UHGV virus genome: UHGV-1753993
Strand: one strand, 5' to 3'
DNA: 25,078 nucleotides
From: a virus
Shown here: one piece after another, positions 1 to 11,981 of the stretch
How the letters are laid out: every line of letters starts with the position of its first letter
Position numbering within the stretch: position 1 is the first letter of the stretch
Translations under genes and position numbers: made by a program
Notes under the pieces: model-generated
Databases searched by the model: none
What the model was told of the DNA's origin: nothing
Seen by the model: only the letters and a program-made list of their open reading frames with translations

Positions 1-36
1 ACTGTATCGTAGCGAACAGTTTACAGCAGAACTTGA

Positions 37-70
37 AAGAGCATCGGTTTTCAACCGATGCTCTTCTTTT
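37..70 (+). terminator. intrinsic-terminator-like hairpin (13-bp stem AAGAGCATCGGTT / AACCGATGCTCTT, 3-nt loop) followed by CTTTTT
   Basis: Perfect inverted repeat read directly from sequence, T-run at 66-70; presumably ends an upstream + strand gene lying outside the window. Confidence 0.5.
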
Positions 71-87
71 TGTGCGTATTGCTGCCT

Positions 88-198
88 GATATATAATATG
101 TCAATAAATTTCACATACAAAAGTCTTTTCGCTTATGAAAACTACTCAACTCTGGTTTGAACGCCAGCAGTCAATCGCGGGGGGGCTCTTCGTGACAC
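88..198 (+). repeat. Family 5' module copy 1: putative promoter, leader ORF MKTTQLWFERQQSIAGG and G7 tract (179-185)
   Basis: About 110 bp nearly identical to the reverse complement of 5232-5344 and about 75 bp identical to the reverse complement of 1727-1798. Confidence 0.8.
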
Positions 199-913
199 TA
201 TTATCAGCGGCACTATCAACAAAGCAGATGGTTCACTACTTGAAGCTGCATATGCAACTATGCAAGAAGTCGAATGCTATGATGCTGACACTGGTGAATT
301 CTTAGCAGGCTCGCCTATTACAGTGCAGTCAAATGGCGTGCCAACATATAAGTTGACAATTCCTGCAAACAGGCTTGGTGCAGGTGCATTGTCAATTTGT
401 TCAGTGTATCTTGATAATGTCAGCATAAATGACTGTCTACGTTATGGCACTGGCTCCACTTTATATTGCTACGCAGGTCAAGGCGAGACACTTGATAATG
501 TCAATTTGACATGTGGTGATGCACTTGCATGCTTGCCTTGGATTCATGAAATTCATAGAGGTGATTCAGAGACAAATGAGCAACGTGTAGCAATTGTGCT
601 TGATGGCATTAAATCGTCTTGCACAGATGAAGACATTCAGCTACTTGCATCTACATTGTCGCACCCATTTGAATCATTTGGAAATGATAAAGTATTTGCA
701 GGCAAGCCTGCGTACTATGACAACTGCTTTGCTGAATGGCTAATGCTAAATGATTTTCAAGCAGGCAACATGGTCGATGCTTCTGTCACTAACTGCATTT
801 TGCTTATAGCAAATGACCCTGTAGTTGGTGTGGACATCTTGACTACTCTTGGATACATCACATCAGCGTTCACGTTCAACATGTATGACATGACAAACTG
901 GAATATGCTGTAA
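135..913 (+). CDS. Variable family protein, member 1; leader ORF (ATG 135) and body ORF (260-913 in track) offset by -1 at the G7 tract
   Basis: ATG at 135 encodes MKTTQLWFERQQSIAGG; body frame opens just upstream of the G-run as ..GGALRDT.., matching in-frame member 4595-5296 (..SIAGVALRDT..); one extra G or a -1 shift joins them; body shares CLPWIHE and AEWLMLNDF motifs with other members. Confidence 0.55.
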
Positions 914-931
914 TGAACTGCAAATGCACAC

Positions 932-963
932 AAAAAGACTCAGCAATATTGCTGAGTCTTTTT
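932..963. terminator. Bidirectional terminator: 22-nt perfect palindrome GACTCAGCAATATTGCTGAGTC flanked by A5 and T5
   Basis: Read directly; lies between convergent family genes (135-913 on + and 1790-about 1000 on -). Confidence 0.65.
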
Positions 964-1206
964 GTGTGCACTGTGACGCGCTTAATTGATGCATTCTGAG
1001 TGTAACATAGTCTGGAAATGACAGACTATTGCATGCATTGTTTAGATACTGTGTGATGTCATTTGCTGTAGGACCAGTACAGAATATCAATACATGCGAT
1101 GAATGCGCAGTGTTAATAGACTGCTGACGTAAATAGTCATTAACTTGTGCCCACTCAAGCACTGAATAGGTGCCTGAACCTGATATATCATACATTGATG
1201 CATCGC

Positions 1207-1790
1207 CTATCCATAGTGTGTTAGGGAATGCTTCGTTAATATGCGACAGCGTTTCTGCAACAGTTTGCCAGTCTGCTCGAAGTGCTGATTGTGTATTGTT
1301 TGCAATGTTATACTATACAATACTACTGCATGCATATTATCTTCATATTGTGCAGCTTCATATATCCACGGCAAGCATACAGAAGTTCCACCACACTGCA
1401 GTGATATGTCATATGAATTGCCATCGCTAACATTCGTGAGTGTGCCGCTACAGGCAGTGCCGTAATCTAATGCGCCCCATTCAGGGTCATCTGATTCAGT
1501 CTCGTGTGATACGGTAGCAAATAGTTGCAGAGCAAGTTCAGATGTGTCTGGTGACAAGCCTTTAAGCGTCATTTGAAATGTGCAATCACCTGACATGACA
1601 GGCAACATCATTGAACCAAGCAATGTGTTAGATGACATATCATATGCCTCTATGCGCAAAGGCAATGGTATATCAATGTACAGAGGCTCAGATTCACCAG
1701 CACAATAGATAGCGCAGTTAAGTGTTGTATCACGAAGAGCCCCCCCGCGATTGACTGCTGGCGTTCAAACCAGAGTTGAGTAGTTTTCAT
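1207..1790 (-). pseudogene. Variable family member 3, multiply frame-disrupted (C7 tract at 1740-1746; second frame change near 1313-1340)
   Basis: ATG at 1790 gives MKTTQLWFERQQSIAGG; body ORF 1207-1665 is in the -1 frame (..GGALRDTTLN..CLPWIYE..HAVVL); conserved C-terminal motifs (ETLSHINEAF, VLEWAQVNDY) continue in a third frame (track ORF 863-1195) that reads through the 932-963 terminator with no stop. Confidence 0.45.
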
Positions 1791-1798
1791 AAGCGAAA
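1727..1798 (-). repeat. Family 5' module copy 3 (leader + C7/G7 tract)
   Basis: Reverse complement is identical to 131-198 apart from one base after the tract. Confidence 0.8.
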
Positions 1799-1883
1799 GA
1801 GCTGTTAAAAGTTTGTGAAAATGTTTACAAATTATTTATCAACTAAGTGCAAAATCTGTAAGTATATAGTTTTAATATACATC

Positions 1884-1924
1884 AAAAAAAAAACTCCACT
1901 GAGAATTCAGTGGAGTTTTTTTTT
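1884..1924. terminator. Bidirectional intrinsic terminator: A10, 9-bp stem CTCCACTGA / TCAGTGGAG, 4-nt loop, T9
   Basis: Read directly; immediately downstream of the stop of minus-strand gene 1945-2574. Confidence 0.75.
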
Positions 1925-1944
1925 GATGCTTCTAATGACAACTG

Positions 1945-2574
1945 TCAATAAATGCCAACTATGACATGACCACCAAGTCTATTGTTGATAGCTGTGCAAA
2001 TTGCATCAGCATCTTCATATTGCAAATTTGCAAACATAATATGTTCTGGTCCAGGTGAAGTTACACTGCCACTATTCATATGCAATTGGCGCCATTGTTC
2101 AAACATTGCAATTGCATCATCTTGGTAATCAAATCCGCCAACAAGATATGCATCAGGCGCGTATTGCCTCACATATGTTGTGGTGCCAAACTCTTCACCA
2201 AGTGCTGCTGCACCATATTCATCGCAGTCACTAATTCGAATTTGATTGCCATTTGGCAAATACTTGTTAGGATTTGCAGGATAAAACCATGGTAGCACAC
2301 CCAGTTTGTTGACACATATGTCAATGTTGTTTTTTGATGCAGGCTCACCAAATGTTACCAAACATGAGCCATTGCCCATCATGACAGTGTTTTCATGCAT
2401 GCCAACAACATATTTGGTGCCTTTTGGCTCATATGTGCTGAATGTCCATAAGCCTGTTTCAGCATCTGATTGCACTTGGTTGCTAATGTAGCCATCAACT
2501 GACCACATATTGACTGCTACAGATGGAATGTGAGCAACTTGTTCTGAGTCATAATCTCTGATGTAGCCAGACAC
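1945..2574 (-). CDS. Hypothetical protein, distant homolog of the variable family (shares LPWFY and FEQWRQLHMNSG-type motifs); start uncertain
   Basis: Track ORF (209 aa; listed start is GTG). A possible leader ATG at 2645 (MQIPRNWGGG) runs into the C11/G11 tract at 2616-2626 and is -1 out of frame with the body. Confidence 0.6.
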   Translation of the reverse strand: MSGYIRDYDSEQVAHIPSVAVNMWSVDGYISNQVQSDAETGLWTFSTYEPKGTKYVVGMHENTVMMGNGSCLVTFGEPASKNNIDICVNKLGVLPWFYPANPNKYLPNGNQIRISDCDEYGAAALGEEFGTTTYVRQYAPDAYLVGGFDYQDDAIAMFEQWRQLHMNSGSVTSPGPEHIMFANLQYEDADAICTAINNRLGGHVIVGIY

Positions 2575-2615
2575 TTCTTCTACGAATGTAGGTCCAGTTT
2601 GGAGGGCTTGTTGTG

Positions 2616-2626
2616 CCCCCCCCCCC
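2616..2626. repeat. Homopolymer C11 (G11 on the minus-strand mRNA), with adjacent AGTT forming an inverted-repeat arm
   Basis: Read directly; partner arm AACTGGGGGGGG at 2914-2925. Confidence 0.9.
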
Positions 2627-2650
2627 AGTTACGAGGGATTTGCATATGAA

Positions 2651-2836
2651 TTGAGTTTTTGAAATGAGTTGAGTTTTGATGCAAGATGCAAAAACTTTTG
2701 AGTTTTGATGCAAGATGCAAAACTTTTGAGTTTTGATGCAAGATGCAAAACTTTTGAGTTTTGATGCAAGATGCAAAACAACTAAGATGTTGTTTTGATG
2801 CAAGATGCAAAACAACTAAGATGTTGTTTTGATATG
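2651..2836. repeat. Tandem direct-repeat array: 3 units of about 28 bp (TTTTGATGCAAGATGCAAAACTTTTGAG) and 2 units of 34 bp (..AAAACAACTAAGATGTTG), plus partial units
   Basis: Read directly; each unit contains the internal duplication GATGCAA-GATGCAA; no spacers, so not a CRISPR array. Confidence 0.9.
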
Positions 2837-2913
2837 TACATATGGGCAGTCAAAATATATAAACAAACAATTTAATTTTTGAAAAACTCATAAGTTTTAT
2901 GACATTCAAATTG

Positions 2914-2925
2914 AACTGGGGGGGG
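2914..2925. repeat. AACT + homopolymer G8 (2918-2925); inverted partner of 2616-2630
   Basis: Read directly. Confidence 0.85.
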
Positions 2926-3034
2926 TCACATATCTGGCTCAATCTCTTGTTATAACGTAGGTGACATTGCATTCGATGAAAAGTTTGCAGTGTTGCTTTC
3001 ATGTCACATTGCATAACTTAAAACATCGAAACAT

Positions 3035-3463
3035 ATGGCAGTTCAAACACGTTCGGTACTCAAAACGTACTTTGAAACCGGAGATAAACCCACCTCAGCA
3101 CAATTTGGCGACCTCATTGATAGTGCGTTGATGGCTCGATATATTTGGGAGACTGCATCAACTTTTGCAGCAATGGGCAGCACAGTATATATGTCAAATG
3201 CTACTGCAGCGCAAACAATAGATATGCAAGCAGTAGAACTTGGTGAAAGCTTTGTATTCAATAGAGTTGGCGAAGCAGCTGGAATTAATTTGCTGCCAAC
3301 ATTTTCTGGCAGTGGAATTTCAAGACGTTTTGCAGCTAACTATTATGATGTATCTGCAGATTCACCAGGTGTAATGTCATATGCTGTATTGATGACAAAT
3401 ATGAGTCAAGAATTGCTGACATTAAAAGTCGCTCTTATCAACCGCGCTTTATACAACAACTAG
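3035..3463 (+). CDS. Hypothetical protein with conserved N-terminus MAVQTR.VLKTYFETGDKPT.AQFGDLIDS (tandem paralog A)
   Basis: Track ORF with ATG start; N-terminal 30 aa nearly identical to 3541-3951 at protein level but diverged at DNA level. Confidence 0.7.
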   Translation: MAVQTRSVLKTYFETGDKPTSAQFGDLIDSALMARYIWETASTFAAMGSTVYMSNATAAQTIDMQAVELGESFVFNRVGEAAGINLLPTFSGSGISRRFAANYYDVSADSPGVMSYAVLMTNMSQELLTLKVALINRALYNN

Positions 3464-3540
3464 CAGACATACTTGAATGATGAAATTGTTCGAGCTTGTC
3501 TGCAATACAATAACAGACAAACTTCAAACAATTTCATACT

Positions 3541-3951
3541 ATGGCTGTACAAACAAGAAATGTTCTCAAGACATATTTCGAGACAGGCGATAAGCCAACT
3601 GCTGCTCAATTTGGTGATTTGATTGATAGCATATTTGCTGCTAAGTTTATGATGGTATCAAGTACCAGCATTAATGCTGTGCCAAATACATTGTACAGCA
3701 TTAATGCTGGTACATCTACCGTGACAATTAATGCAAATGCGCTTGAACGCGGTGAATCATTTATAGTTGACCGTGGCACTAATGCAATTTATGCAAATGC
3801 TGACGTTGACTTTGTGCACAACAACATGGTTATGTACTCAAAAGGATATGCAAATGTCAGTGCGCCGCAAGATGATTGCATAATGTCGTACACTGCATTA
3901 CTGTGTAATGACTATGTGTTGCTTGTCAATAGGGCATACTATAGCATATAG
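3541..3951 (+). CDS. Hypothetical protein, tandem paralog B of 3035-3463
   Basis: Track ORF with ATG start; shared N-terminal domain. Confidence 0.7.
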   Translation: MAVQTRNVLKTYFETGDKPTAAQFGDLIDSIFAAKFMMVSSTSINAVPNTLYSINAGTSTVTINANALERGESFIVDRGTNAIYANADVDFVHNNMVMYSKGYANVSAPQDDCIMSYTALLCNDYVLLVNRAYYSI

Positions 3952-3975
3952 ATGTCTAAAATTGCCAAACAGCAC

Positions 3976-4010
3976 AAAAAATGCTCCACTGAGATTTCTC
4001 AGTGGAGCAT
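3976..4010. terminator. Terminator hairpin (14-bp stem ATGCTCCACTGAGA / TCTCAGTGGAGCAT) with A-run on the + side (T-run for the minus-strand transcript)
   Basis: Read directly; between convergent genes 3541-3951 (+) and 4036-4559 (-); stem core CTCCACTGAG is shared with the 1884-1924 terminator. Confidence 0.65.
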
Positions 4011-4035
4011 TGCTTATATGTGATGCATCTGTCAG

Positions 4036-4559
4036 TTAGCTGACTTTCTTTGCATTCTTAAGTATGATTGACACGATATCTCCATTGTTAATTTTGACAG
4101 ATGGATTTGACATTGGCAATGTAAGCTTATCACCAACGCCTAATGGATATTGCCATGCCATAGAAGTTAACAGTATGGGATTACCACCAGGGCTTGTGTT
4201 GTTAATGTTGGCATACACATTGATGTTGTAAACGTTGCCAGTACCACGGCCATCTGCTGCATAACAGCCAAAGCCAATTTTTGCAGCAAAGTTTGAGTAG
4301 TCATAAGCTTTTGGCATCATTAACGCACCAATGGCGTAAGTTTCACCACCGCGGCATTCCATCATTTTGATAGGAAAGCCTGACGTTGGTATGTTAACTG
4401 TAACATTGTCAAGCGATATTGTACCTTGTATCGCCATTGTTTCAGTAGTGCCAAAGTTGTACAATGAAGCGTCACCAATAACAAGCTGCAGGTAGACTAA
4501 TTTAGAGCCCCCCCCGCTAGCACTTGTTGACGCTCAAACCAAAATTGTGGAGTTTTCAT
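4036..4559 (-). CDS. Variable family member 4; leader MKTPQFWFERQQVLAGG (ATG 4559) offset by -1 from the body at the C8/G8 tract (4508-4515)
   Basis: Leader frame stops 3 codons after the tract; body frame opens at the tract (SGGGSKLVYLQ..) and continues to the stop at 4036; body is G/N-rich. Confidence 0.5.
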
Positions 4560-4594
4560 ATGCTATGTGTTTGAATATTGTAAGATATGTACAC

Positions 4595-5296
4595 TTAGCC
4601 AAGTGTTGTTTTATCTGTGATGAACACATGAAATATGTCAGATAGTGTTTTCACAATTATAGCGCCCTCATATATTGGCGAAACATAAGAAGCATTAGCA
4701 ATAGACCATATGCCGACATGTGTCAATTTTGCAGATAAGCTATTGCCAACTCTAAAATTAGCAGCCAAGCTATTTGCAGCTATGTTAACTGACACATTGA
4801 CATTAGATGCTACTGATGTATTGCAAATTGTTGACAGTTTAATTGCCACTGGCAACGCAGATTCAAGCATTGCGGTGCAAATGCATGTATTGCCACTGTT
4901 AGTTATTGTTACTTCGCATGATTTGAACGCTTCAATATTGACATTTAGTGTGTTGTTAGCAATATCTGCGCCATATATAAGTGTAAATGCTGCAGATGAC
5001 CAAGACATATCTGCAGCATCAGGCGTGTCAATAAGATAAAATTGTGCGTCTTTTGTTGAGCCGACTAATTGCTTATAGTCATCACCAGTTATGTAAAATG
5101 TGATGCCATCACCATTATTGCTTGTGTACAAGCCTCTTTGAAGTGTTCGCCCTGTTTCAATACAGTGTAAATAGCAAGTTAGTCCATTAACAATGTTATC
5201 AGCATTGTCACGCACGTATATGTGCACGCCTGTGTCACGAAGAGCCACCCCCGCGATTGACTGCTGGCGTTCAAACCAGAGTTGAGTAGTTTTCAT
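4595..5296 (-). CDS. Variable family member 2, intact in-frame copy (233 aa)
   Basis: Track ORF with ATG start; leader MKTTQLWFERQQSIAG then VALRDT..; tract is GGGGGTGG (T-interrupted), giving a continuous frame. Confidence 0.75.
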   Translation of the reverse strand: MKTTQLWFERQQSIAGVALRDTGVHIYVRDNADNIVNGLTCYLHCIETGRTLQRGLYTSNNGDGITFYITGDDYKQLVGSTKDAQFYLIDTPDAADMSWSSAAFTLIYGADIANNTLNVNIEAFKSCEVTITNSGNTCICTAMLESALPVAIKLSTICNTSVASNVNVSVNIAANSLAANFRVGNSLSAKLTHVGIWSIANASYVSPIYEGAIIVKTLSDIFHVFITDKTTLG

Positions 5297-5344
5297 AAGC
5301 GAAAAGACTTTTTGTATGTGAAATTTATTGACATATTATATATC
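5232..5344 (-). repeat. Family 5' module copy 2 (promoter + leader + interrupted G tract)
   Basis: Reverse complement nearly identical to 88-198 (differences: A5 vs A4 upstream of the ATG; GGGGGTGG vs GGGGGGG). Confidence 0.85.
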
Positions 5345-5416
5345 AAATCAGTGCAAATTTGATAAATTTGTAGTACAATTATCATATATCAATATAGTAT
5401 ACAAACCTCTACAACA

Positions 5417-5728
5417 ATGAATATAAACGCATTCAAAGCAATTGAAAAACAACTCAAGCATCTAAAATTTTATGACAGAATAAATCTGTCTCATCTTGAT
5501 ATTCATAGCAGCGTTAACAATGCACAAGTTAAGTTAATAAGCTGTCAATACATGGGTTGCCTTGGCTCGCCAAAAGAACTTCGGTTCGCAGTTAAACGAA
5601 CTGATATGCAGGCAGCGCCAACATCATGGTATCACTATTTAGCAGTGCCAGAATTGTTCTCACAAGATGCAATCGAACAAATTAAAGCAACAATTAAAGT
5701 AGCTATATCTGCAAAAACTCAGCATTAA
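5417..5728 (+). CDS. Hypothetical protein (103 aa)
   Basis: Track ORF with ATG start; start region CTCTACAACAATGAA shared with 5751. Confidence 0.6.
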   Translation: MNINAFKAIEKQLKHLKFYDRINLSHLDIHSSVNNAQVKLISCQYMGCLGSPKELRFAVKRTDMQAAPTSWYHYLAVPELFSQDAIEQIKATIKVAISAKTQH

Positions 5729-5750
5729 ACAACTCAAAATCTCTACAACA

Positions 5751-6230
5751 ATGAACATCAACGACATTAACAAAGAACTTCTTAAAATCTTCTTAGAGAA
5801 GCATGGAGAAGTTCGTCTTTCTAAGAAACATGACTTTCTTGCAATAGAACGCCAACGTACAGACACTCATGTTATTGTAGGCGTATCCTGCAATTTCTTT
5901 GACGATTGTCATACGACCATATCGCAATTTGAAATTCCTGTAAAAGACTGGGACAACCGCAGCAAGTTCATTGCAATGAAAGACTATGTTCGTCAGCCAA
6001 TTGTGCATGAGGACACTGATATGTTTCCGTGGCTGCATTGTATCAAATTTGACATGTCAGTCAAAGCATTCGAATATGTTCCGATTTCTGCACAGTCAAA
6101 TGCAATAGAGCTTGAATTGCTCAACAATCCGCCCTACAAATGGTGCAATAAAGAGCCTGAATTCGATGACTTTGATGACGACTTTGCAAGTCTTGAAGAT
6201 TGCATGGGATATGATGACGATAATGAATAA
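5751..6230 (+). CDS. Hypothetical protein with acidic C-terminus (159 aa)
   Basis: Track ORF with ATG start. Confidence 0.65.
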   Translation: MNINDINKELLKIFLEKHGEVRLSKKHDFLAIERQRTDTHVIVGVSCNFFDDCHTTISQFEIPVKDWDNRSKFIAMKDYVRQPIVHEDTDMFPWLHCIKFDMSVKAFEYVPISAQSNAIELELLNNPPYKWCNKEPEFDDFDDDFASLEDCMGYDDDNE

Positions 6231-6242
6231 AACGCGACTATC

Positions 6243-6533
6243 ATGACACCAGATTATACAGTAGCATTCAGTATTTGCGAAAACAACAAACAAGTCGCAT
6301 ATCGCAAAGCAGAAGTAGGTCCAGAACAATTTGCAGTCATGTCATCTATGCAGATTGGTGCAATCATCAATTTAACAGACAGTGTTAATGTACCTGCAGA
6401 ACGTCGTCAAGAAATGTCATCGCTGTGCGGCGCATATCGCATTATTGACATACAGTACAGTGTAAAAGTAGAAACAATATTGAGTACTTTTGCAGCTTGT
6501 CAGCATTGTGTCATCAAACTTGTGCGAGCATGA
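6243..6533 (+). CDS. Hypothetical protein (96 aa)
   Basis: Track ORF; ATG 12 nt after the preceding stop. Confidence 0.55.
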   Translation: MTPDYTVAFSICENNKQVAYRKAEVGPEQFAVMSSMQIGAIINLTDSVNVPAERRQEMSSLCGAYRIIDIQYSVKVETILSTFAACQHCVIKLVRA

Positions 6534-6670
6534 AATTGAACAAGTTGTTCAAATTGCGTCAACGTTTCATAACTTGTTCATTGATTCTAATGTTCGCATG
6601 GAACTGTGCAATGCTGCAAACAATGATATCGATTCTGTAGTCAAGCGAATTCTTAACATCTCAATGTAAC

Positions 6671-6967
6671 ATGCAAACTAATATGCAAACTAACACATTA
6701 TATCTTGCAAGGCTATCTAATGGTCAAGACATTGGCATAACAGAACTTGCACAGCCAGTATTTCCATGTTTTGTGTATGATGACACATCAAAGGTCTATC
6801 TTACACAAGCAGAACTTGAACAGCAGCCTCATGCAAGACATTGTCATGCAATACCAGATGCACATGCATTACATGTCAGTGGTGTTGGTTATGTACGAGG
6901 CTGGACTGAATTATTTGCCGCATGCAAATCATTAAGAACTGACATCATAAAACTTGAGCGTATATGA
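6671..6967 (+). CDS. Hypothetical protein, paralog of 7291-7551
   Basis: Track ORF; shared motifs ITEL.QPV..C and GYVR.W.EL with 7291-7551. Confidence 0.6.
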   Translation: MQTNMQTNTLYLARLSNGQDIGITELAQPVFPCFVYDDTSKVYLTQAELEQQPHARHCHAIPDAHALHVSGVGYVRGWTELFAACKSLRTDIIKLERI

Positions 6968-7260
6968 AAAACTTTCTGACAATTGTTGCATGCATTATGT
7001 TCATGCTGTTAGGCTATATTCTGAATGGCTGCATTATTATGAACTTCTGGGAGTGGTTTGTAATGCCTGTGTGGCCAGCATTGACTGCGTTATCGCTTAA
7101 GCATGCAATTGGGATATCATTTGTACTGACATTGTTCAAGAATCATGACACAATCAACAAGTTCAGTGAATTGCCGATTGCTGCGCAGTTCTTTATGTAT
7201 TGCATCATGCAGCCTGCAATAATTATGTTCTTGGGTTTTATGGTGCATTGCTTTTTGTAG
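6964..7260 (+). CDS. Small hydrophobic membrane protein (about 3 predicted TM segments)
   Basis: Track ORF; ATGA start/stop overlap with the preceding gene; sequence dominated by hydrophobic runs. Confidence 0.6.
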   Translation: MKNFLTIVACIMFMLLGYILNGCIIMNFWEWFVMPVWPALTALSLKHAIGISFVLTLFKNHDTINKFSELPIAAQFFMYCIMQPAIIMFLGFMVHCFL

Positions 7261-7290
7261 ATATCTTAACAATATCATAAATTGCAAGCA

Positions 7291-7551
7291 ATGGACAAAC
7301 AAGTACGATGCATATTGCGCAATGGCAAGAAAATCACAGTGACTGAATTGTCAGAGCCTGTGTATCATTGCGTATACACAAGTAACAACGCAGAAGTTTG
7401 GCTAACTGCCAAGCAAATCAAAGATGCTGCAGGTGCAGTCAAGTATGTTGACAGCAAGCCATACATGTTGCATGTCTTTATGACAGGCTACGTTCGTGAC
7501 TGGTCTGAATTGCATAAGCGATATGATATTGTAGAACTACAAAACGTCTAA
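7291..7551 (+). CDS. Hypothetical protein, paralog of 6671-6967
   Basis: Track ORF 7282-7551 starts at TTG; first in-frame ATG is 7291. Confidence 0.6.
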   Translation: MDKQVRCILRNGKKITVTELSEPVYHCVYTSNNAEVWLTAKQIKDAAGAVKYVDSKPYMLHVFMTGYVRDWSELHKRYDIVELQNV

Positions 7552-7555
7552 GAAT

Positions 7556-7918
7556 ATGAAACGATTTACATTGTTGTTCATTGCAATTGCATGCATTGCA
7601 TGTGCTGCAGTTAAGCCAACATATGTGTCAACTGTCACTTTGCAACCACGAGAATTTGTTGATAGTGTATGCAATGCACATAATACGCATTTGCCTGAAA
7701 TTGATGTGTGGCATGCTCAAGCGACTGATTCTACTTGTCTTGTTGCAAGAGTAGATACGACATTCAAACATGCTCGATACATTACTACTTCAGCGCCATA
7801 CATTAAGTCAAATGGCAAAGTCGACAACAAACGCTGGTATTTGATTGTTGCGTCAGTTTATCCTTATAGAGATTCTGTGCGTGTAGTGATGCGAATTGAG
7901 CCTCAATCAAATGAATGA
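7556..7918 (+). CDS. Putative secreted protein or lipoprotein (N-terminal signal MKRFTLLFIAIACIACAA with lipobox-like IAC)
   Basis: Track ORF; hydrophobic N-terminus followed by Cys, read by eye. Confidence 0.55.
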   Translation: MKRFTLLFIAIACIACAAVKPTYVSTVTLQPREFVDSVCNAHNTHLPEIDVWHAQATDSTCLVARVDTTFKHARYITTSAPYIKSNGKVDNKRWYLIVASVYPYRDSVRVVMRIEPQSNE

Positions 7919-8079
7919 CAATGCAATCTTGCTGGTTAAGCCCATCAGGTCAAGTCACCTACTGTGACTTTGCTGAACATAGCAAAACTGCTGACATATT
8001 GTTGCAAAAGCTCAAACCAGAGTTGTTGACGCATACAATATGCCAGTTAGTCTTGCGCATGACCAGTTGCAGAACTTGA
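7915..8079 (+). CDS. Small ORF (54 aa), not in ORF track
   Basis: ATG overlaps the preceding stop (ATGA); fills an otherwise gene-free gap; found by manual translation. Confidence 0.3.
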   Translation: MTMQSCWLSPSGQVTYCDFAEHSKTADILLQKLKPELLTHTICQLVLRMTSCRT

Positions 8080-8186
8080 GCAATTATGCTACATTCGATA
8101 TTACAGCTGTGGAAGGCACTACGAAATGCACAAAGGCGCAACGTGAAGCAATGTTTGACTTGACAAGGCACTGGCATGAGCAATAA
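8040..8186 (+). CDS. Small ORF (48 aa), not in ORF track
   Basis: Manual translation; ends 15 nt before the next gene; overlaps the 7915-8079 ORF in another frame. Confidence 0.25.
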   Translation: MPVSLAHDQLQNLSNYATFDITAVEGTTKCTKAQREAMFDLTRHWHEQ

Positions 8187-8201
8187 GATACATTATCTGA
8201 T

Positions 8202-8816
8202 ATGAAACATACAACATATGGACTGGGCTACATCCAGTCACCTAAAGATGACAGAGACTTGCGCTTTGACGCAAAAACTGATTTGCCACTTGTGTACAAG
8301 TTGGCTCAACTTCAAGTAGAAGACCAAGGCAGTACATCAATGTGTGCAGCTTACACAGCAGCAACAATGATTGACTGGTGGTCTTCTGTGCTGTCTATGC
8401 AAGGCAAGCTTGACATCAAAGCATTGTATGAGCGTCGTTCAAATAAGCCTCAAGAGGGCATGATTCCGCGTGACGTCTTTAAGCTGCTCAAAGCACAGCC
8501 AATCAAGATGTCAAAGGGCTCAGAACAATCGCCGATAACTGCATACAGACGTTGCTACACAATTGATGAAGTCAAATCTGCTATTGTAGCAAATGGGCCT
8601 GTATTTGTTGGCATGCTCGTAAAAGACATTGAAGCTGAGCATTTCTGGAAAGGCGATGGCAATTTTGGTGGTCATGCAGTGTCAATTGTCGGCTATACAA
8701 AAGACTCATTCATCATCAAGAATAGCTGGGGTATATCTTGGGGTGATTCCGGCTACACTACAATGCCCTTTGAAGATTTTTCAGCAATCATTGAAGCTTG
8801 GACCATTTTGAGATGA
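8202..8816 (+). CDS. Papain-like (C1-family-like) cysteine peptidase
   Basis: Catalytic-triad signatures by eye: QGSTSMCAAYT (Cys), GGHAVSIVGY (His), NSWGISWGDSGY (Asn/Trp); no signal peptide. Confidence 0.65.
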   Translation: MKHTTYGLGYIQSPKDDRDLRFDAKTDLPLVYKLAQLQVEDQGSTSMCAAYTAATMIDWWSSVLSMQGKLDIKALYERRSNKPQEGMIPRDVFKLLKAQPIKMSKGSEQSPITAYRRCYTIDEVKSAIVANGPVFVGMLVKDIEAEHFWKGDGNFGGHAVSIVGYTKDSFIIKNSWGISWGDSGYTTMPFEDFSAIIEAWTILR

Positions 8817-9572: not shown

Positions 9573-10696
9573 ATGAGTCGCTACAAGCAAGATACGCCAT
9601 TAACTGGCGCAGCTATTGAGAAAAGAATTGCAGAACTTGAAGCTGAAAGAGATGAATTGTTAAGGGTGACAGAGAATGTTAGATTAGGCAAACATAAGAC
9701 AGCTCATAGTGAAATTGCACGAAAGTACAACTACAAAATTGGGTGCTTAAAAAAGTATGGGTTTGAAAATGCGATGAAATGCACTGCGCTAAAAAAATCA
9801 AGCAATCAATACCAGACGTGCAAATAATGACGTTGATGCAATGATTGCAAAAATGCAAGCAACAAACTTAAAACGTTATGGCCACGCAAATGGCAATGTA
9901 GAAAAAATTACTGCAACTAAAGTACAGCGATTTGGCAATGGCTATGGCAACAAAGCAAAGGCAATTGATACCAAAAAAACGTAAATATGGCAATGCATGG
10001 GGTGACCGCTCAAAAATCTGTGCAACAAATTTAGAACGTTATGGTTATGCAAATGGCAATGTTGCTAAAATGTGTAAAACTAAACGTGCACGATGGGGCA
10101 ACGCGTTTGGCAATTTGACTTTGATTCGTGAACGTTTAGCAGACTTGTATGGCGCTGTATGCCATTTTAGCGTGCGCTCAAAGTCAAAGCCATGTTCAAA
10201 GCTTGAGTTATTTGTGCATGATAAGATATTACATGCTCTTGGCATTAACTTTGAATATTCACATTTAATAGGTGGCAGATTGTATGATTTGCGATATAAT
10301 GACATAGTTATAGAAATTAGCCCAACAATATCGCACAATAGCACGTACAGTTTTGCATATCTAAATAATAGAACACATAATAATGTGCCAATGCATACGC
10401 ATTATCATTTTGATAAGACTCAACTTGCTCTCAAACATGGCTACATATGCATAACAATTTTTGACTGGCATAACTTAAACGACGTTGTGTCAATTGTTGG
10501 TATGCATTTAGCAAAGCTATCAATAAACTCAACAGACTTCGCACTCAATCCGCAGTTGTCAGATGACAAGTCAACAATTCGCAAACACTGGTGTCATTTG
10601 AAGACAAAAGAGCATATTGAAGACTGCGGACAAGATGAGCAAGAGATGATTGACGCTGGTTATGTTGCAGTGTACGATTGCGGTCATGCAAGATAA
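9573..10696 (+). CDS. Repeat-containing protein (five or more units of about 18 aa, T-x-[KL]-x-R-[YFW]-G-x-[AG]-x-G-[NV]), interrupted by +1 frame breaks at two A7 tracts
   Basis: Track ORFs 9573-9827 and 9932-10696 plus an unlisted 9841-9984 ORF; the amino-acid repeat continues across frames 0, 1 and 2, switching at A7 9791-9797 and A7 9973-9979. Confidence 0.5.
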
Positions 10697-10722
10697 GTGC
10701 AAATGATATTCGCATGTTGTAT

Positions 10723-10804
10723 CATATTCATATACAATATGAATATGCATGTTGCACAATACATATACAAATAACAAATAAACTTCTGAAGATTTTCTGA
10801 AGAG
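10723..10804 (+). promoter_or_regulatory. Upstream region of the SSB gene: hairpin (11-bp stem CATATTCATAT / ATATGAATATG, 10723-10747), TGTTGCACAAT motif (10750-10760), direct repeat TTCTGAAGA x2
   Basis: Read directly; function inferred from position only. Confidence 0.35.
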
Positions 10805-10847
10805 TTCATTTCAAACTTTTTGTTAAACTTTCTAAAATTTTATTGCG

Positions 10848-11981
10848 ATGTCACAAATTGAAAATGGACAGACCAGCAATCAGCCTCTGTCAATCTTTGA
10901 TGTCCAGCCGGACAATGTAGCAAGCTTTGCTAAGCCGGAACGTTCTGCAGGACCCGAGTTCTTTAATCCTAAGCCGCAGGATTCGCCAAAGGACAAAGTT
11001 TATCGTGCAGTTATTCGCGTATTGCCGAATTTAGCAGACCCAGCAGTACCGATTTCAATCGTTCGTTATTACTGGTTTGCAACTGGCCATAATCAGGGCT
11101 TCCGCTACAATTCGCCGAGCTCGCCTAATCCGCATCCTGAAAATCCGGAAAATTTGATGAAACCCTACGGTTGGTGTCCCATTTCGGCATTCTACTGGGA
11201 ACTCATCAATACCAAGGATGCTCAGCAGGAAGCACTTGCAAAGCGAGAGTTCAGTATGCAGAGTCAGTACACTTGCCTCGTGCAAATCAAGGCTGATTCA
11301 GTGCACCCTGAGAACGTTGGGAAAGTACTCCCATATCGACTCCCTGCTGCATTGTATAAAAGAATGCTGAGCTCAATGAAGCCGACTGACGAAGACATCC
11401 AGATGGGCGCTCAGCCTATGGACATGTTCCATCCTGTTAAGGGCCATGACATTCTCTTGAAGATTACGCTTAAAGACGTCAATGGCGTTGAAATGCGTGA
11501 CTACGAGACTTCGACGATTTCGCCCAACGTATCGTCGATGCTGCTTGCAGATGGCAGCCTTGTTGACCAGGCGAAGTATGACACTGACCCTGCATACAAG
11601 CAGCAAATCATGCAGCAGATTGTCGACATGCTCAAGGAGTACCCGAATGTCGAAAAGGAGTGGGGCTACCACGAAGCTTCTGATGACATCAAGCGTCAGG
11701 TTAAGATGCGCCTTGCTAACTACAAGGATGTGTCGGATATCTGGCCTGACATTGTCATCAATCCGTCAGCAGCTCAGCAGGCACAGACTACTCAGCCTGC
11801 ACCAGCAGCAGCTCCGGCAGCTGCGCCTGCTACTGCACCAGCAGCTCAGACAGCCATTGACCCGTTTGCAGCAGCTTCAGCACCTGCAGCAGAGCCTGTA
11901 CCTGCAGCAGCTCCAGCAGCAGCGCCTACAGCAGCAACGATGGATGCTGAAACTGAAGCATTCATCAATGGGCTCAAGTAG
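10848..11981 (+). CDS. T4 gp32-like single-stranded DNA-binding protein with a Pro/Ala-rich C-terminal linker
   Basis: Matches to T4 gp32 recalled from memory (AVIRVLPN vs AVIRFLPS; ENVGKVLPYR vs ENEGKVFKYR); distinct codon usage and higher GC than neighbours. Confidence 0.75.
   Translation: MSQIENGQTSNQPLSIFDVQPDNVASFAKPERSAGPEFFNPKPQDSPKDKVYRAVIRVLPNLADPAVPISIVRYYWFATGHNQGFRYNSPSSPNPHPENPENLMKPYGWCPISAFYWELINTKDAQQEALAKREFSMQSQYTCLVQIKADSVHPENVGKVLPYRLPAALYKRMLSSMKPTDEDIQMGAQPMDMFHPVKGHDILLKITLKDVNGVEMRDYETSTISPNVSSMLLADGSLVDQAKYDTDPAYKQQIMQQIVDMLKEYPNVEKEWGYHEASDDIKRQVKMRLANYKDVSDIWPDIVINPSAAQQAQTTQPAPAAAPAAAPATAPAAQTAIDPFAAASAPAAEPVPAAAPAAAPTAATMDAETEAFINGLK

Follow-up and report, generated by a model that had tools for sequence, protein, structure and literature searches.

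Among bacterial contingency loci are the poly-G genes of Campylobacter, Neisseria, and Haemophilus. In the opa genes of Neisseria, CTCTT repeats lie in a conserved leader ahead of variable bodies, many paralogues are present, and most copies are off. Phage systems that yield alternative host-recognition proteins include the invertible tail-fiber segments of Mu (Gin/G) and P1 (Cin/C) and the diversity-generating retroelement of Bordetella phage BPP-1. The present study concerns a gene on the minus strand (1945-2645) of a 25,078-nucleotide (nt) stretch of the virus genome UHGV-1753993, the whole of which is referred to as the window. In this gene a short leader is separated from the body by an uninterrupted run of 11 G residues (G11), and the gene was judged to be, with good probability, a slipped-strand phase-variable contingency gene that is OFF in the window and one insertion from ON. 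Among phages, hypermutable poly-G has been described in genes of Campylobacter (Fletchervirus) phages, including those for receptor-binding proteins (Sorensen et al. 2021, Cell Rep 35:109214; cited in PMC10877375), homopolymer slippage at contingency loci of T2/T4 has been proposed as bet-hedging (Gomez, Barrick and Waters 2025, bioRxiv 10.1101/2025.10.21.683753), and diversity-generating retroelements have been described in Quimbyviridae (PMC8008677).

The likeness to the Fletchervirus tracts, as far as these are characterized in the citing article, lies in a phage-encoded coding run whose length toggles the product, in mixed progeny, and in the host-recognition context, with the switching and mixing being what the present locus would be expected to do. 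There is no sequence relationship between the two, and the phages studied here, known from sequence alone, are of a gut, Bacteroidota-like lineage with genomes of ~175 kb and ~40% GC. Their tracts follow the start codon by 7 to 17 codons and belong to a portable, conserved leader common to an array of unrelated bodies, a feature that sets them apart from the Fletchervirus genes as outlined in that article. In the T2/T4 preprint, in the terms in which it presents them, simple-sequence repeats are distributed across genes of every functional class, whereas here long tracts (G7 to G13) occupy one set position in the leader, within an array devoted to such genes. The closest architecture is that of opa, with its short conserved N-terminal leader, slippage-prone repeat, variable body, and multiple paralogues, most of them off; the phage locus differs in being viral, in having a homopolymer rather than a pentamer and a leader that is not a signal peptide, in its two leader classes, and in the exchange of bodies at the repeat. 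With the inversion and retroelement systems it would share alternative host-recognition proteins in one population, with conserved N-terminal and variable C-terminal parts, but here the switching would be by frame, and no recombinase or reverse transcriptase was seen in the window. Contingency switching as a principle has precedents in bacteria and in a few phages; in the present case the leader module involved is common to several different genes. No description was found in the literature of a gut-phage array with at least six gated cassettes, two interchangeable short leader classes, and tracts at the exchange joints.

Leader, tract, and frames of gene 1945-2645

The gene is referred to below as gene c and the reading frame behind its tract as body c. 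Two classes of leader were distinguished: class I, MKT[TP]Q[LF]WFERQQ..A-Gn-ALRD, which defines the MKTTQLWFERQQ-leader family (genes a, b, f, and g of the window), and class II, MxxxxNW-Gn, to which gene c belongs. Related loci and proteins are designated by L and P numbers, respectively, and lengths are given in nt or amino acids (aa). Gene c and its immediate surroundings comprise the following features:

2646..2668, minus strand: upstream part of the portable module, ctcatttcaaaaactcaattcat; conserved, present in L012; no Shine-Dalgarno sequence
2627..2645, minus strand: class II leader before the tract, ATG CAA ATC CCT CGT AAC T(GG), encoding MQIPRNW
2629..2631, minus strand: TAA that shuts the body frame at G11, immediately 5' of the tract
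2616..2626, minus strand: poly-G tract, G11 (C11 on the plus strand), the putative hypermutable gate; begins in codon 7 after ATG 2645
2599..2615, minus strand: linker after the tract, CACAACAAGCCCTCCAA, AQQALQ in the body frame; 17 nt identical before three unrelated bodies
1945..2628, minus strand: body reading frame, 227 codons from the tract, stop TGA 1947-1945; orphan protein
2580..2582, minus strand: TAG that ends the 21-codon leader open reading frame (ORF) at G11; 5 nt upstream of GTG 2574
2572..2574, minus strand: GTG, first canonical start inside the body frame (209 aa); candidate leader-independent start
1885..1924, no strand assigned: bidirectional terminator-like hairpin, A9 CTCCACTGA … TCAGTGGAG T9, with 18-nt arms 100% complementary; 21 nt after the body stop

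An earlier note, made from the letters of the window, had described a leader of the gene's own (MQIPRNWGGG) that starts at ATG 2645 and ends in G11 (C11 on the plus strand at 2616-2626), a TAA just upstream of the tract, and a body frame that opens exactly at the tract and lies -1 to the leader. Direct reading of the minus strand, with the start codon at ATG 2645-2643, bore out this description. At G11 the leader frame encodes MQIPRNWGGGHNKPSKLDLHS and terminates after 21 codons at TAG 2582-2580. With the body frame at -1 relative to the leader, one G more (G12) or two fewer (G9) joins the two. The product translated in silico at G9/G12 was a 233-aa fusion, MQIPRNWGG(G)AQQALQTGPTFVEEVSGYIRDYD…, with a predicted leader-body junction peptide of NWGG(G)AQQALQTGPTFVEEVSGYIR, compared with a 21-aa peptide at G11 and a 31-aa peptide at G10. 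A tract of G10 or G13 places the leader in the third frame, where its ORF ends at TGA 2549, and is also OFF.

No Shine-Dalgarno sequence was found before any start codon examined in the window, ATG 2645 included, and since no gene of the window has one, its absence at ATG 2645 is not evidence against that start. As a separate observation on this region, C-rich segments of the minus-strand RNA, UCCCUC upstream and GCCCUCC in the AQQALQ linker, pair with the G tract (2599-2640). The predicted fold of 2560-2700 had an energy of -33.7 kcal/mol (z = -2.25), a stability matched by 3 of 200 shuffles.

Tract length and reading frame in related phages

The tract was found to differ in length between genomes that were otherwise identical around it. 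European Nucleotide Archive (ENA) contig k119_91679 of ERZ27261429 aligned with positions 167-8463 of the window with 0 mismatches and a single gap, corresponding to G10 versus G11. Behind the same leader but before a second body, L017 carried G9 and L016 and L018 carried G10; these came from three samples, and the flanks showed 0/600 and 0/60 mismatches. Hence, in two cases the tract was the sole difference between otherwise identical flanks. The full spectrum of lengths was G9 to G13, of which 9, 10, 11, and 12 were seen in DNA, while 12 (P0006) and 13 (P0013) were implied by proteins, some lengths being derived from the N-termini of gene calls and not from DNA.

The protein cluster of the body, defined at 90%, contained 14 members on about 60 contigs. 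N-termini of the form …FICKSLVTGGGAQQ, which correspond to G10, were observed for P0001, P0004, P0007, and P0010 (16 contigs), and that of P0013, …TGGGGAQQ, corresponds to G13. P0006 (3 contigs) is a natural in-frame G12 allele (MQIPRNWGGGAQQALQ… / MQIPRNWGGGAQQALQTGPTF… / MQIPRNWGGGAQQALQTGPTFVEEV…) that runs from the leader ATG, and its N-terminus demonstrates that the ON fusion exists in nature. On some 37 of the approximately 60 contigs the gene was called from GTG 2574 or an internal Met (P0003, P0002 with ATG 2511, and others), as expected at G11. A single gene had in this way been annotated with 14 different N-termini or lengths. The earlier note had set against a gate the case of an invariant tract with translation starting at GTG 2574 or an internal ATG and no contribution from the leader; the lengths of G9 to G13 found between contigs are not those of an invariant tract. 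The locus combines the hallmarks of a contingency locus, namely, an in-frame homopolymer at the 5' end, polymorphism in its length, and a toggle between full-length and truncated products, the last in silico and in P0006.

The mechanism proposed is as follows. In a lytic-looking gut phage of ~175 kb, probably infecting Bacteroidota, translation from ATG 2645 would pass through the seven codons of MQIPRNW into the poly-G tract, the AQQALQ linker, and the body. Slipped-strand mispairing during replication of the phage DNA would alter the number of G residues, so that G9 or G12 would give one ORF of about 233 aa (ON), and G11 would lead to TAG 2582 after 21 codons (OFF). Such a switch would be heritable and reversible, and both OFF and ON genotypes would therefore be present in a phage burst. 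Leader, tract, and linker together would form a portable module, joined to at least three unrelated bodies, and bodies would swap leaders with the joint at the tract. At least six gated cassettes would make up an array beside tail-fiber/baseplate-like genes. From this position of the gene, in a gated array next to such genes, the product would most likely be associated with the virion and act in host interaction, with bet-hedging of its display.

A different account of the same tract is recoding at a slippery G run of fixed length, by -1 ribosomal frameshifting or by RNA-polymerase slippage of one G in either direction, so that full-length protein would arise from the out-of-frame template at a low set ratio. 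The modal states, G7 in most class I loci and G11 in gene c, could indeed be mended by a -1 slip or by insertion of 1 nt in the transcript, and RNA polymerase tends to slip on runs of at least nine identical bases. In the leader frame the class I tract has the sequence GC G_GGG_GGG C, where a -1 slip gives exactly …AGGALRD, and G_GGG_GGG inside the gene c tract has, in the leader frame, the form of an X_XXY_YYZ heptamer, a match that is formal only. The tract length is not fixed, however, but ranges from 9 to 13 in near-identical genomes, covering all three phases and including states two slips from ON; in-frame and locked interrupted alleles exist; and no stimulatory structure was detected in the 86 nt downstream (2530-2615), where the minimum free energy was -12.9 kcal/mol (z = +0.65 versus shuffles). 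Recoding can coexist with a DNA switch as a leak and is in that sense a serious partial rival, while as the whole story it is unlikely.

It is less probable still that gene c is decaying and that its tract is a mutational accident in a pseudogene, with the variation in length being an artifact of assembly or sequencing. Most assemblies do have the gene out of frame, and homopolymer lengths called from short reads are error-prone; yet the lengths span a difference of as much as 4 nt and include exactly in-frame alleles on three bodies, and the body is intact in 14/14 cluster members, without internal stops and at 96-98% identity. Gene b of the same window does carry an additional 5-nt frameshifting indel; against this, at least five long G tracts have been kept at the same leader position across many divergent phages, and uninterrupted runs decay fast without selection.

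Slipped-strand phase variation was accordingly the explanation preferred for gene c, and the following points weigh against it. ON alleles were rare in consensus sequences, at 3 of ~60 contigs for body c and ~15% across all cassettes, where random phase would give one-third ON; the commonest states were one slip from ON. This scarcity would also fit recoding or selection for OFF. The assemblies are from short reads and carry some error in homopolymer lengths. Between the tract and GTG 2574 there are too few nucleotides, and too little variation among them, for a test of coding constraint. The product had no homologues outside its own 90% cluster, either in 5.8 billion proteins searched by word index or in 1.84 billion representatives searched with phmmer, and the single-sequence AlphaFold2 model of body c had a predicted local distance difference test (pLDDT) score of 37 and was unusable. 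Finally, a sigma-70 scan returned 16 sites against 20.3 expected, using a model that is unsuited to a Bacteroidota host.

The portable leader module and the gated array

The MQIPRNW leader (19 nt) occurred in L001 to L004, L007, L012, L013, and L016 to L019, with one P-to-T variant. Protein-based locus searches in IMG/VR and JGI metagenomes returned nothing, whereas loci were recovered with DNA patterns made from the leaders. Such scans showed the leader, with tract and AQQALQ linker unchanged in kind, before two other bodies unrelated to body c, the sequences of the different bodies diverging from the position equivalent to 2598 onward. The first of these, in L007/L017 (IMG/VR UViG 3300045988_152288), had G9 and formed a 118-aa ORF from the leader ATG; the same gene had G10 in L013, L016, and L018 and G11 in L019. 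The other, a third body in L012 (JGI contig OGNF01031789.1), had G12 and a 127-aa ORF and lay in a different genomic neighborhood, without the tandem repeats that adjoin the leader in the window. Conversely, body f was found behind three leaders: MKTPQFWFERQQVLA-G8 in the window (MKTPQFWFERQQ), the sister leader MNITMNW-G7 in L010, where MNITMNWGG is fused in frame to give a 165-aa protein, and MKTTQLWFERQQSIA-G7 (MKTTQLW-G7) in L013. Leaders of both classes were therefore interchangeable on this body, with the joints at the tract. In L014 (3470-3510) the MQIPRNW leader ends at AACT and is followed by unrelated sequence, with neither tract nor body; this locus is without cassettes a to c, and the endpoint of the deletion falls exactly at the tract position. 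Because the same module heads three bodies and body f has three leaders, the comparison points to the leader as a real, portable translational start and to the tract as a gate and exchange point. The suggestion in the earlier note that the gate is kept where the leader differs agrees with the presence of poly-G at the leader-body joint in both leader classes of the same array.

Gene c is one of several genes of the window with such a tract. The pattern G7 occurred as five separate tracts, at 179-185, 1740-1746, 2616-2626, 2918-2925, and 4508-4515, compared with 0.03 matches expected from 100 dinucleotide-preserving shuffles of the window, and a chance origin of the tracts is excluded. All lie inside 1-5300, and each has, 18-44 nt upstream, an ATG on the strand where it reads as poly-G. 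The other leaders are as follows:

135..185, plus strand: class I leader MKTTQLWFERQQSIA with G7, gate of gene a (body 182-913); G6 alleles in L007/L017/L018 and P0016
1740..1790, minus strand: class I leader with G7, gate of gene b; G6 in L002
2899..2925, plus strand: sister class II leader D, ATG ACA TTC AAA TTG AAC T + G8 (MTFKLNW), 110 nt upstream of gene d (3035-3463)
4508..4559, minus strand: class I leader MKTPQFWFERQQVLA with G8, gate of gene f (body 4036-4512)
5245..5296, minus strand: class I leader of gene g with the tract interrupted, GGGGGTGG; in frame, 233-aa protein (4595-5296)

Gene g is locked ON by the interrupted tract at 5245-5252, and its being in frame through GGGGGTGG shows that in the class I family leader and body make up one protein. 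At the same position in relatives, L001 had GGGGGGTGG (off), and L008, L010, L014, and L015 had an uninterrupted G6 or G7 (off). Gene b (1790-863, minus strand), beside its G7 gate, has 5 nt inserted at about 1310-1317 when compared with L001 (GTATTGTATAGTATAACATTG versus GTGTTGCGCAACATTG), and its body is thereby broken into two ORFs, 1207-1665 and 863-1195. The added sequence is no homopolymer, and gene b looks like a pseudogene in this genome.

Leader D has the geometry of the MQIPRNW leader (ATG + 12 nt + AACT + Gn), and no body was present behind it (2899-2955) in any frame. Among 12 related loci its tract was G10 in 8, with G7, G8, and G9 also found and one interrupted tract, GGGGGAGGGG (L014); in 10 of the 12 the phase gives an ORF of 38-39 codons that stops 18 nt short of the gene d ATG, and the G8 of the window, with 18 codons, is a minority phase. 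Leader D could be a gate of the upstream-ORF type on the tail-fiber-like gene d, or a relic cassette. The same arrangement bears on a further explanation of gene c, in which the body would be translated alone from GTG 2574 or ATG 2511 and the leader would be a regulatory upstream ORF whose tract tunes expression. Such use is plausible for leader D, whose ORF at G7, G10, or the interrupted GGGGGAGGGG ends so close to gene d, and in gene c at G11 the 5-nt spacing between the leader stop, TAG 2582-2580, and GTG 2574 makes termination-reinitiation conceivable. For gene c this explanation is nevertheless improbable: the same leader is in frame with three bodies, which argues for the fusion as the functional product, the open frame starts directly at the tract, and conservation of the AQQALQ linker follows the leader and not the bodies. 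In L007 and L012, moreover, the first internal Met lies 42-57 codons into an ORF of 118-127 aa, and every other gene of the cluster starts at ATG.

Together with contingency switching of gene c, a broader proposal was considered and is offered tentatively, at somewhat less than even confidence. The leader with its poly-G may be a mobile gate for any body, with the tract serving both as switch and as recombination or deletion joint. The array would be mostly one slip from ON, bursts would sample combinations of tail-associated proteins, and the whole would amount to a virus-encoded, Opa-like variation set against the phase-variable surfaces of gut Bacteroidota. The support for a mobile gate consists of the three leaders on body f, the three bodies on MQIPRNW, and the one deletion that ends at the tract.

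With regard to the array as a unit, inverted repeats of ~97 nt that are 100% identical and contain promoter region and class I leader were observed at 87-183 and 5248-5345, bracketing the entire 5-kb cassette array. The gene content and order of the array differed among L001, L010, L013, L014, and L016, and these differences together with the flanking inverted repeats suggest frequent recombination or inversion between leaders. L010 also encodes, on the minus strand at 10514-11515, a lipoprotein-like protein of 333 aa (MIKKMICIAVCAWMCASCEKNDGGGFDEP…) that has repeats of the GNGKFV type and whose gene is not in the window; a G8 run lies in frame just past its lipobox and is a possible additional gate.

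The relationship of gene c to the class I family was examined for body and leader separately. Bodies a (182-913) and b (frame corrected) were clearly homologous (E 1e-11). Body c (gene 1945-2574) was collinear with both through the YD, C…LPW, and EW motifs, with marginal BLASTP E values of 0.02-0.6 and an hhalign probability of 1.1% (E 0.048; 115 collinear columns). In a shuffle test, 1-12 of 1,000 shuffled sequences scored as high as the real one against a and b (P about 0.001-0.012), compared with about 400-700 of 1,000 against g, f, d, e, and two BACON-like controls, and the real body c ranked 6th of 2,001 against a hidden Markov model (HMM) of a/b. Distant homology of body c to a and b is thus plausible but unproven. 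The family motifs claimed for the body in the earlier note are therefore present and in order, though statistically marginal. Its statement that the family leader is missing holds insofar as MKT[TP]Q[LF]WFERQQ..A is not present at gene c, where the leader is MQIPRNW; some likeness remains in the G9 ON frame, in which MQIPRNWGGAQQALQTG and MKTPQFWFERQQVLAGG align without gaps and are identical at 7/17 positions, and W is residue 7 in all five leader types. This is suggestive only, and the MQIPRNW leader may not be wholly unrelated to class I.

Protein product, neighboring genes, and host

Searches of Pfam and PHROGs gave no match for any variable gene. P0015, initially a candidate homologue of the gene c product, was rejected as spurious, being a translated tandem repeat whose score was inflated by six copies. 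Similarity to tail and receptor-binding proteins was confined to the neighbors d and e, body c having no relatives in Pfam, PHROG, or HMMER. The d/e family (3035-3463; 3541-3951; L001 3887-5746) has 2-4 paralogues per genome and 60 variants in databases, with a near-invariant N-terminus of 30 aa (MAVQTRSVLKTYFETGDKPTxAQFGDLIDS) and highly variable C-terminal beta-domains. The N-terminal motif matched structural or tail proteins of Flavobacterium phages, Kordia, and one crAss-like phage. A model of gene d from 41 sequences (pLDDT 86) had as its best PDB matches T4 gp9, T4 gp10, and the N-terminal attachment domains of CBA120 TSP4, and also matched 127 viral models of tail-fiber, receptor-binding, or minor-tail proteins at E ≤ 0.001. 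These model-based matches of gene d to tail proteins would place the array within the structural module, at its host-recognition end.

Elsewhere in the window are genes for a gp32-like single-strand DNA-binding protein, a papain-like peptidase, and a UvsW/DEAD-type helicase. In tblastn the best matches to the helicase (26-31% identity) included huge uncultured phages and phages of Chryseobacterium, Tenacibaculum, Synechococcus, and Sphingomonas. Related contigs measured 174.6-176.4 kb, and in relatives the array was flanked by BACON-like proteins, which gave faint BACON hits, and by a 1442-aa protein. A megablast of the whole window against 50,697 phage records gave no match. The class I leader had no match in 185,579 species genomes, and there was thus no sign there of a prophage or host. 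Rfam yielded only sub-threshold hairpin matches, and no tRNAs were found. A Bacteroidota host is likely, on the basis of the missing Shine-Dalgarno sequences, the faint BACON hits, and the matches of d/e to Flavobacterium, Kordia, and crAss-like proteins. An alternative genetic code, raised by the split ORFs, was discarded: TGA, TAA, and TAG all end well-supported genes, and the split of gene b is due to the 5-nt indel. The absence of Shine-Dalgarno sequences and the stop usage fit Bacteroidota-type initiation and the standard code.

The intergenic region between the two divergent class II leaders contains one further feature:

2669..2833, no strand assigned: tandem repeats, a 22-nt core GTTTTGATGCAAGATGCAAAAC present five times with periods of 28 and 34 nt (0.01 copies expected)

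These repeats had been placed slightly too widely, at 2651-2836, but are real. Each core has a GATGCAA doublet between GTTTT and AAAAC arms. Related phages had 2 or 5 copies, confined to that intergenic region, and L012 had none; the repeats probably form a shared operator/promoter region of variable copy number. A Bacteroidota-type promoter could not be placed by eye in the region. Two other functions were considered for the sequences here and not favored. The C(n)AGTT…AACTG(n) pair (2616-2630 / 2914-2925) was tried as the boundary of an invertible promoter; no inverted arrangement was present in any locus, and the pair is better explained as two homologous leaders. A homopolymer switch in a promoter spacer was set aside on the grounds that the tract is 18 nt downstream of a conserved ATG and in frame with three bodies.

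Gut Bacteroidota evade phages by phase-varying their capsules and surface proteins, and to our knowledge the countermeasures of phages are largely unknown beyond diversity-generating retroelements. An array of independently switching, gated genes next to a tail-fiber module would be a simple counterstrategy, amounting to bet-hedged host recognition. It would also explain why such genes look "broken" and are mis-called in metagenome assemblies. For annotation pipelines and for the screening of phage-therapy genomes, out-of-frame genes behind G tracts should accordingly be treated as switchable genes and not as pseudogenes.

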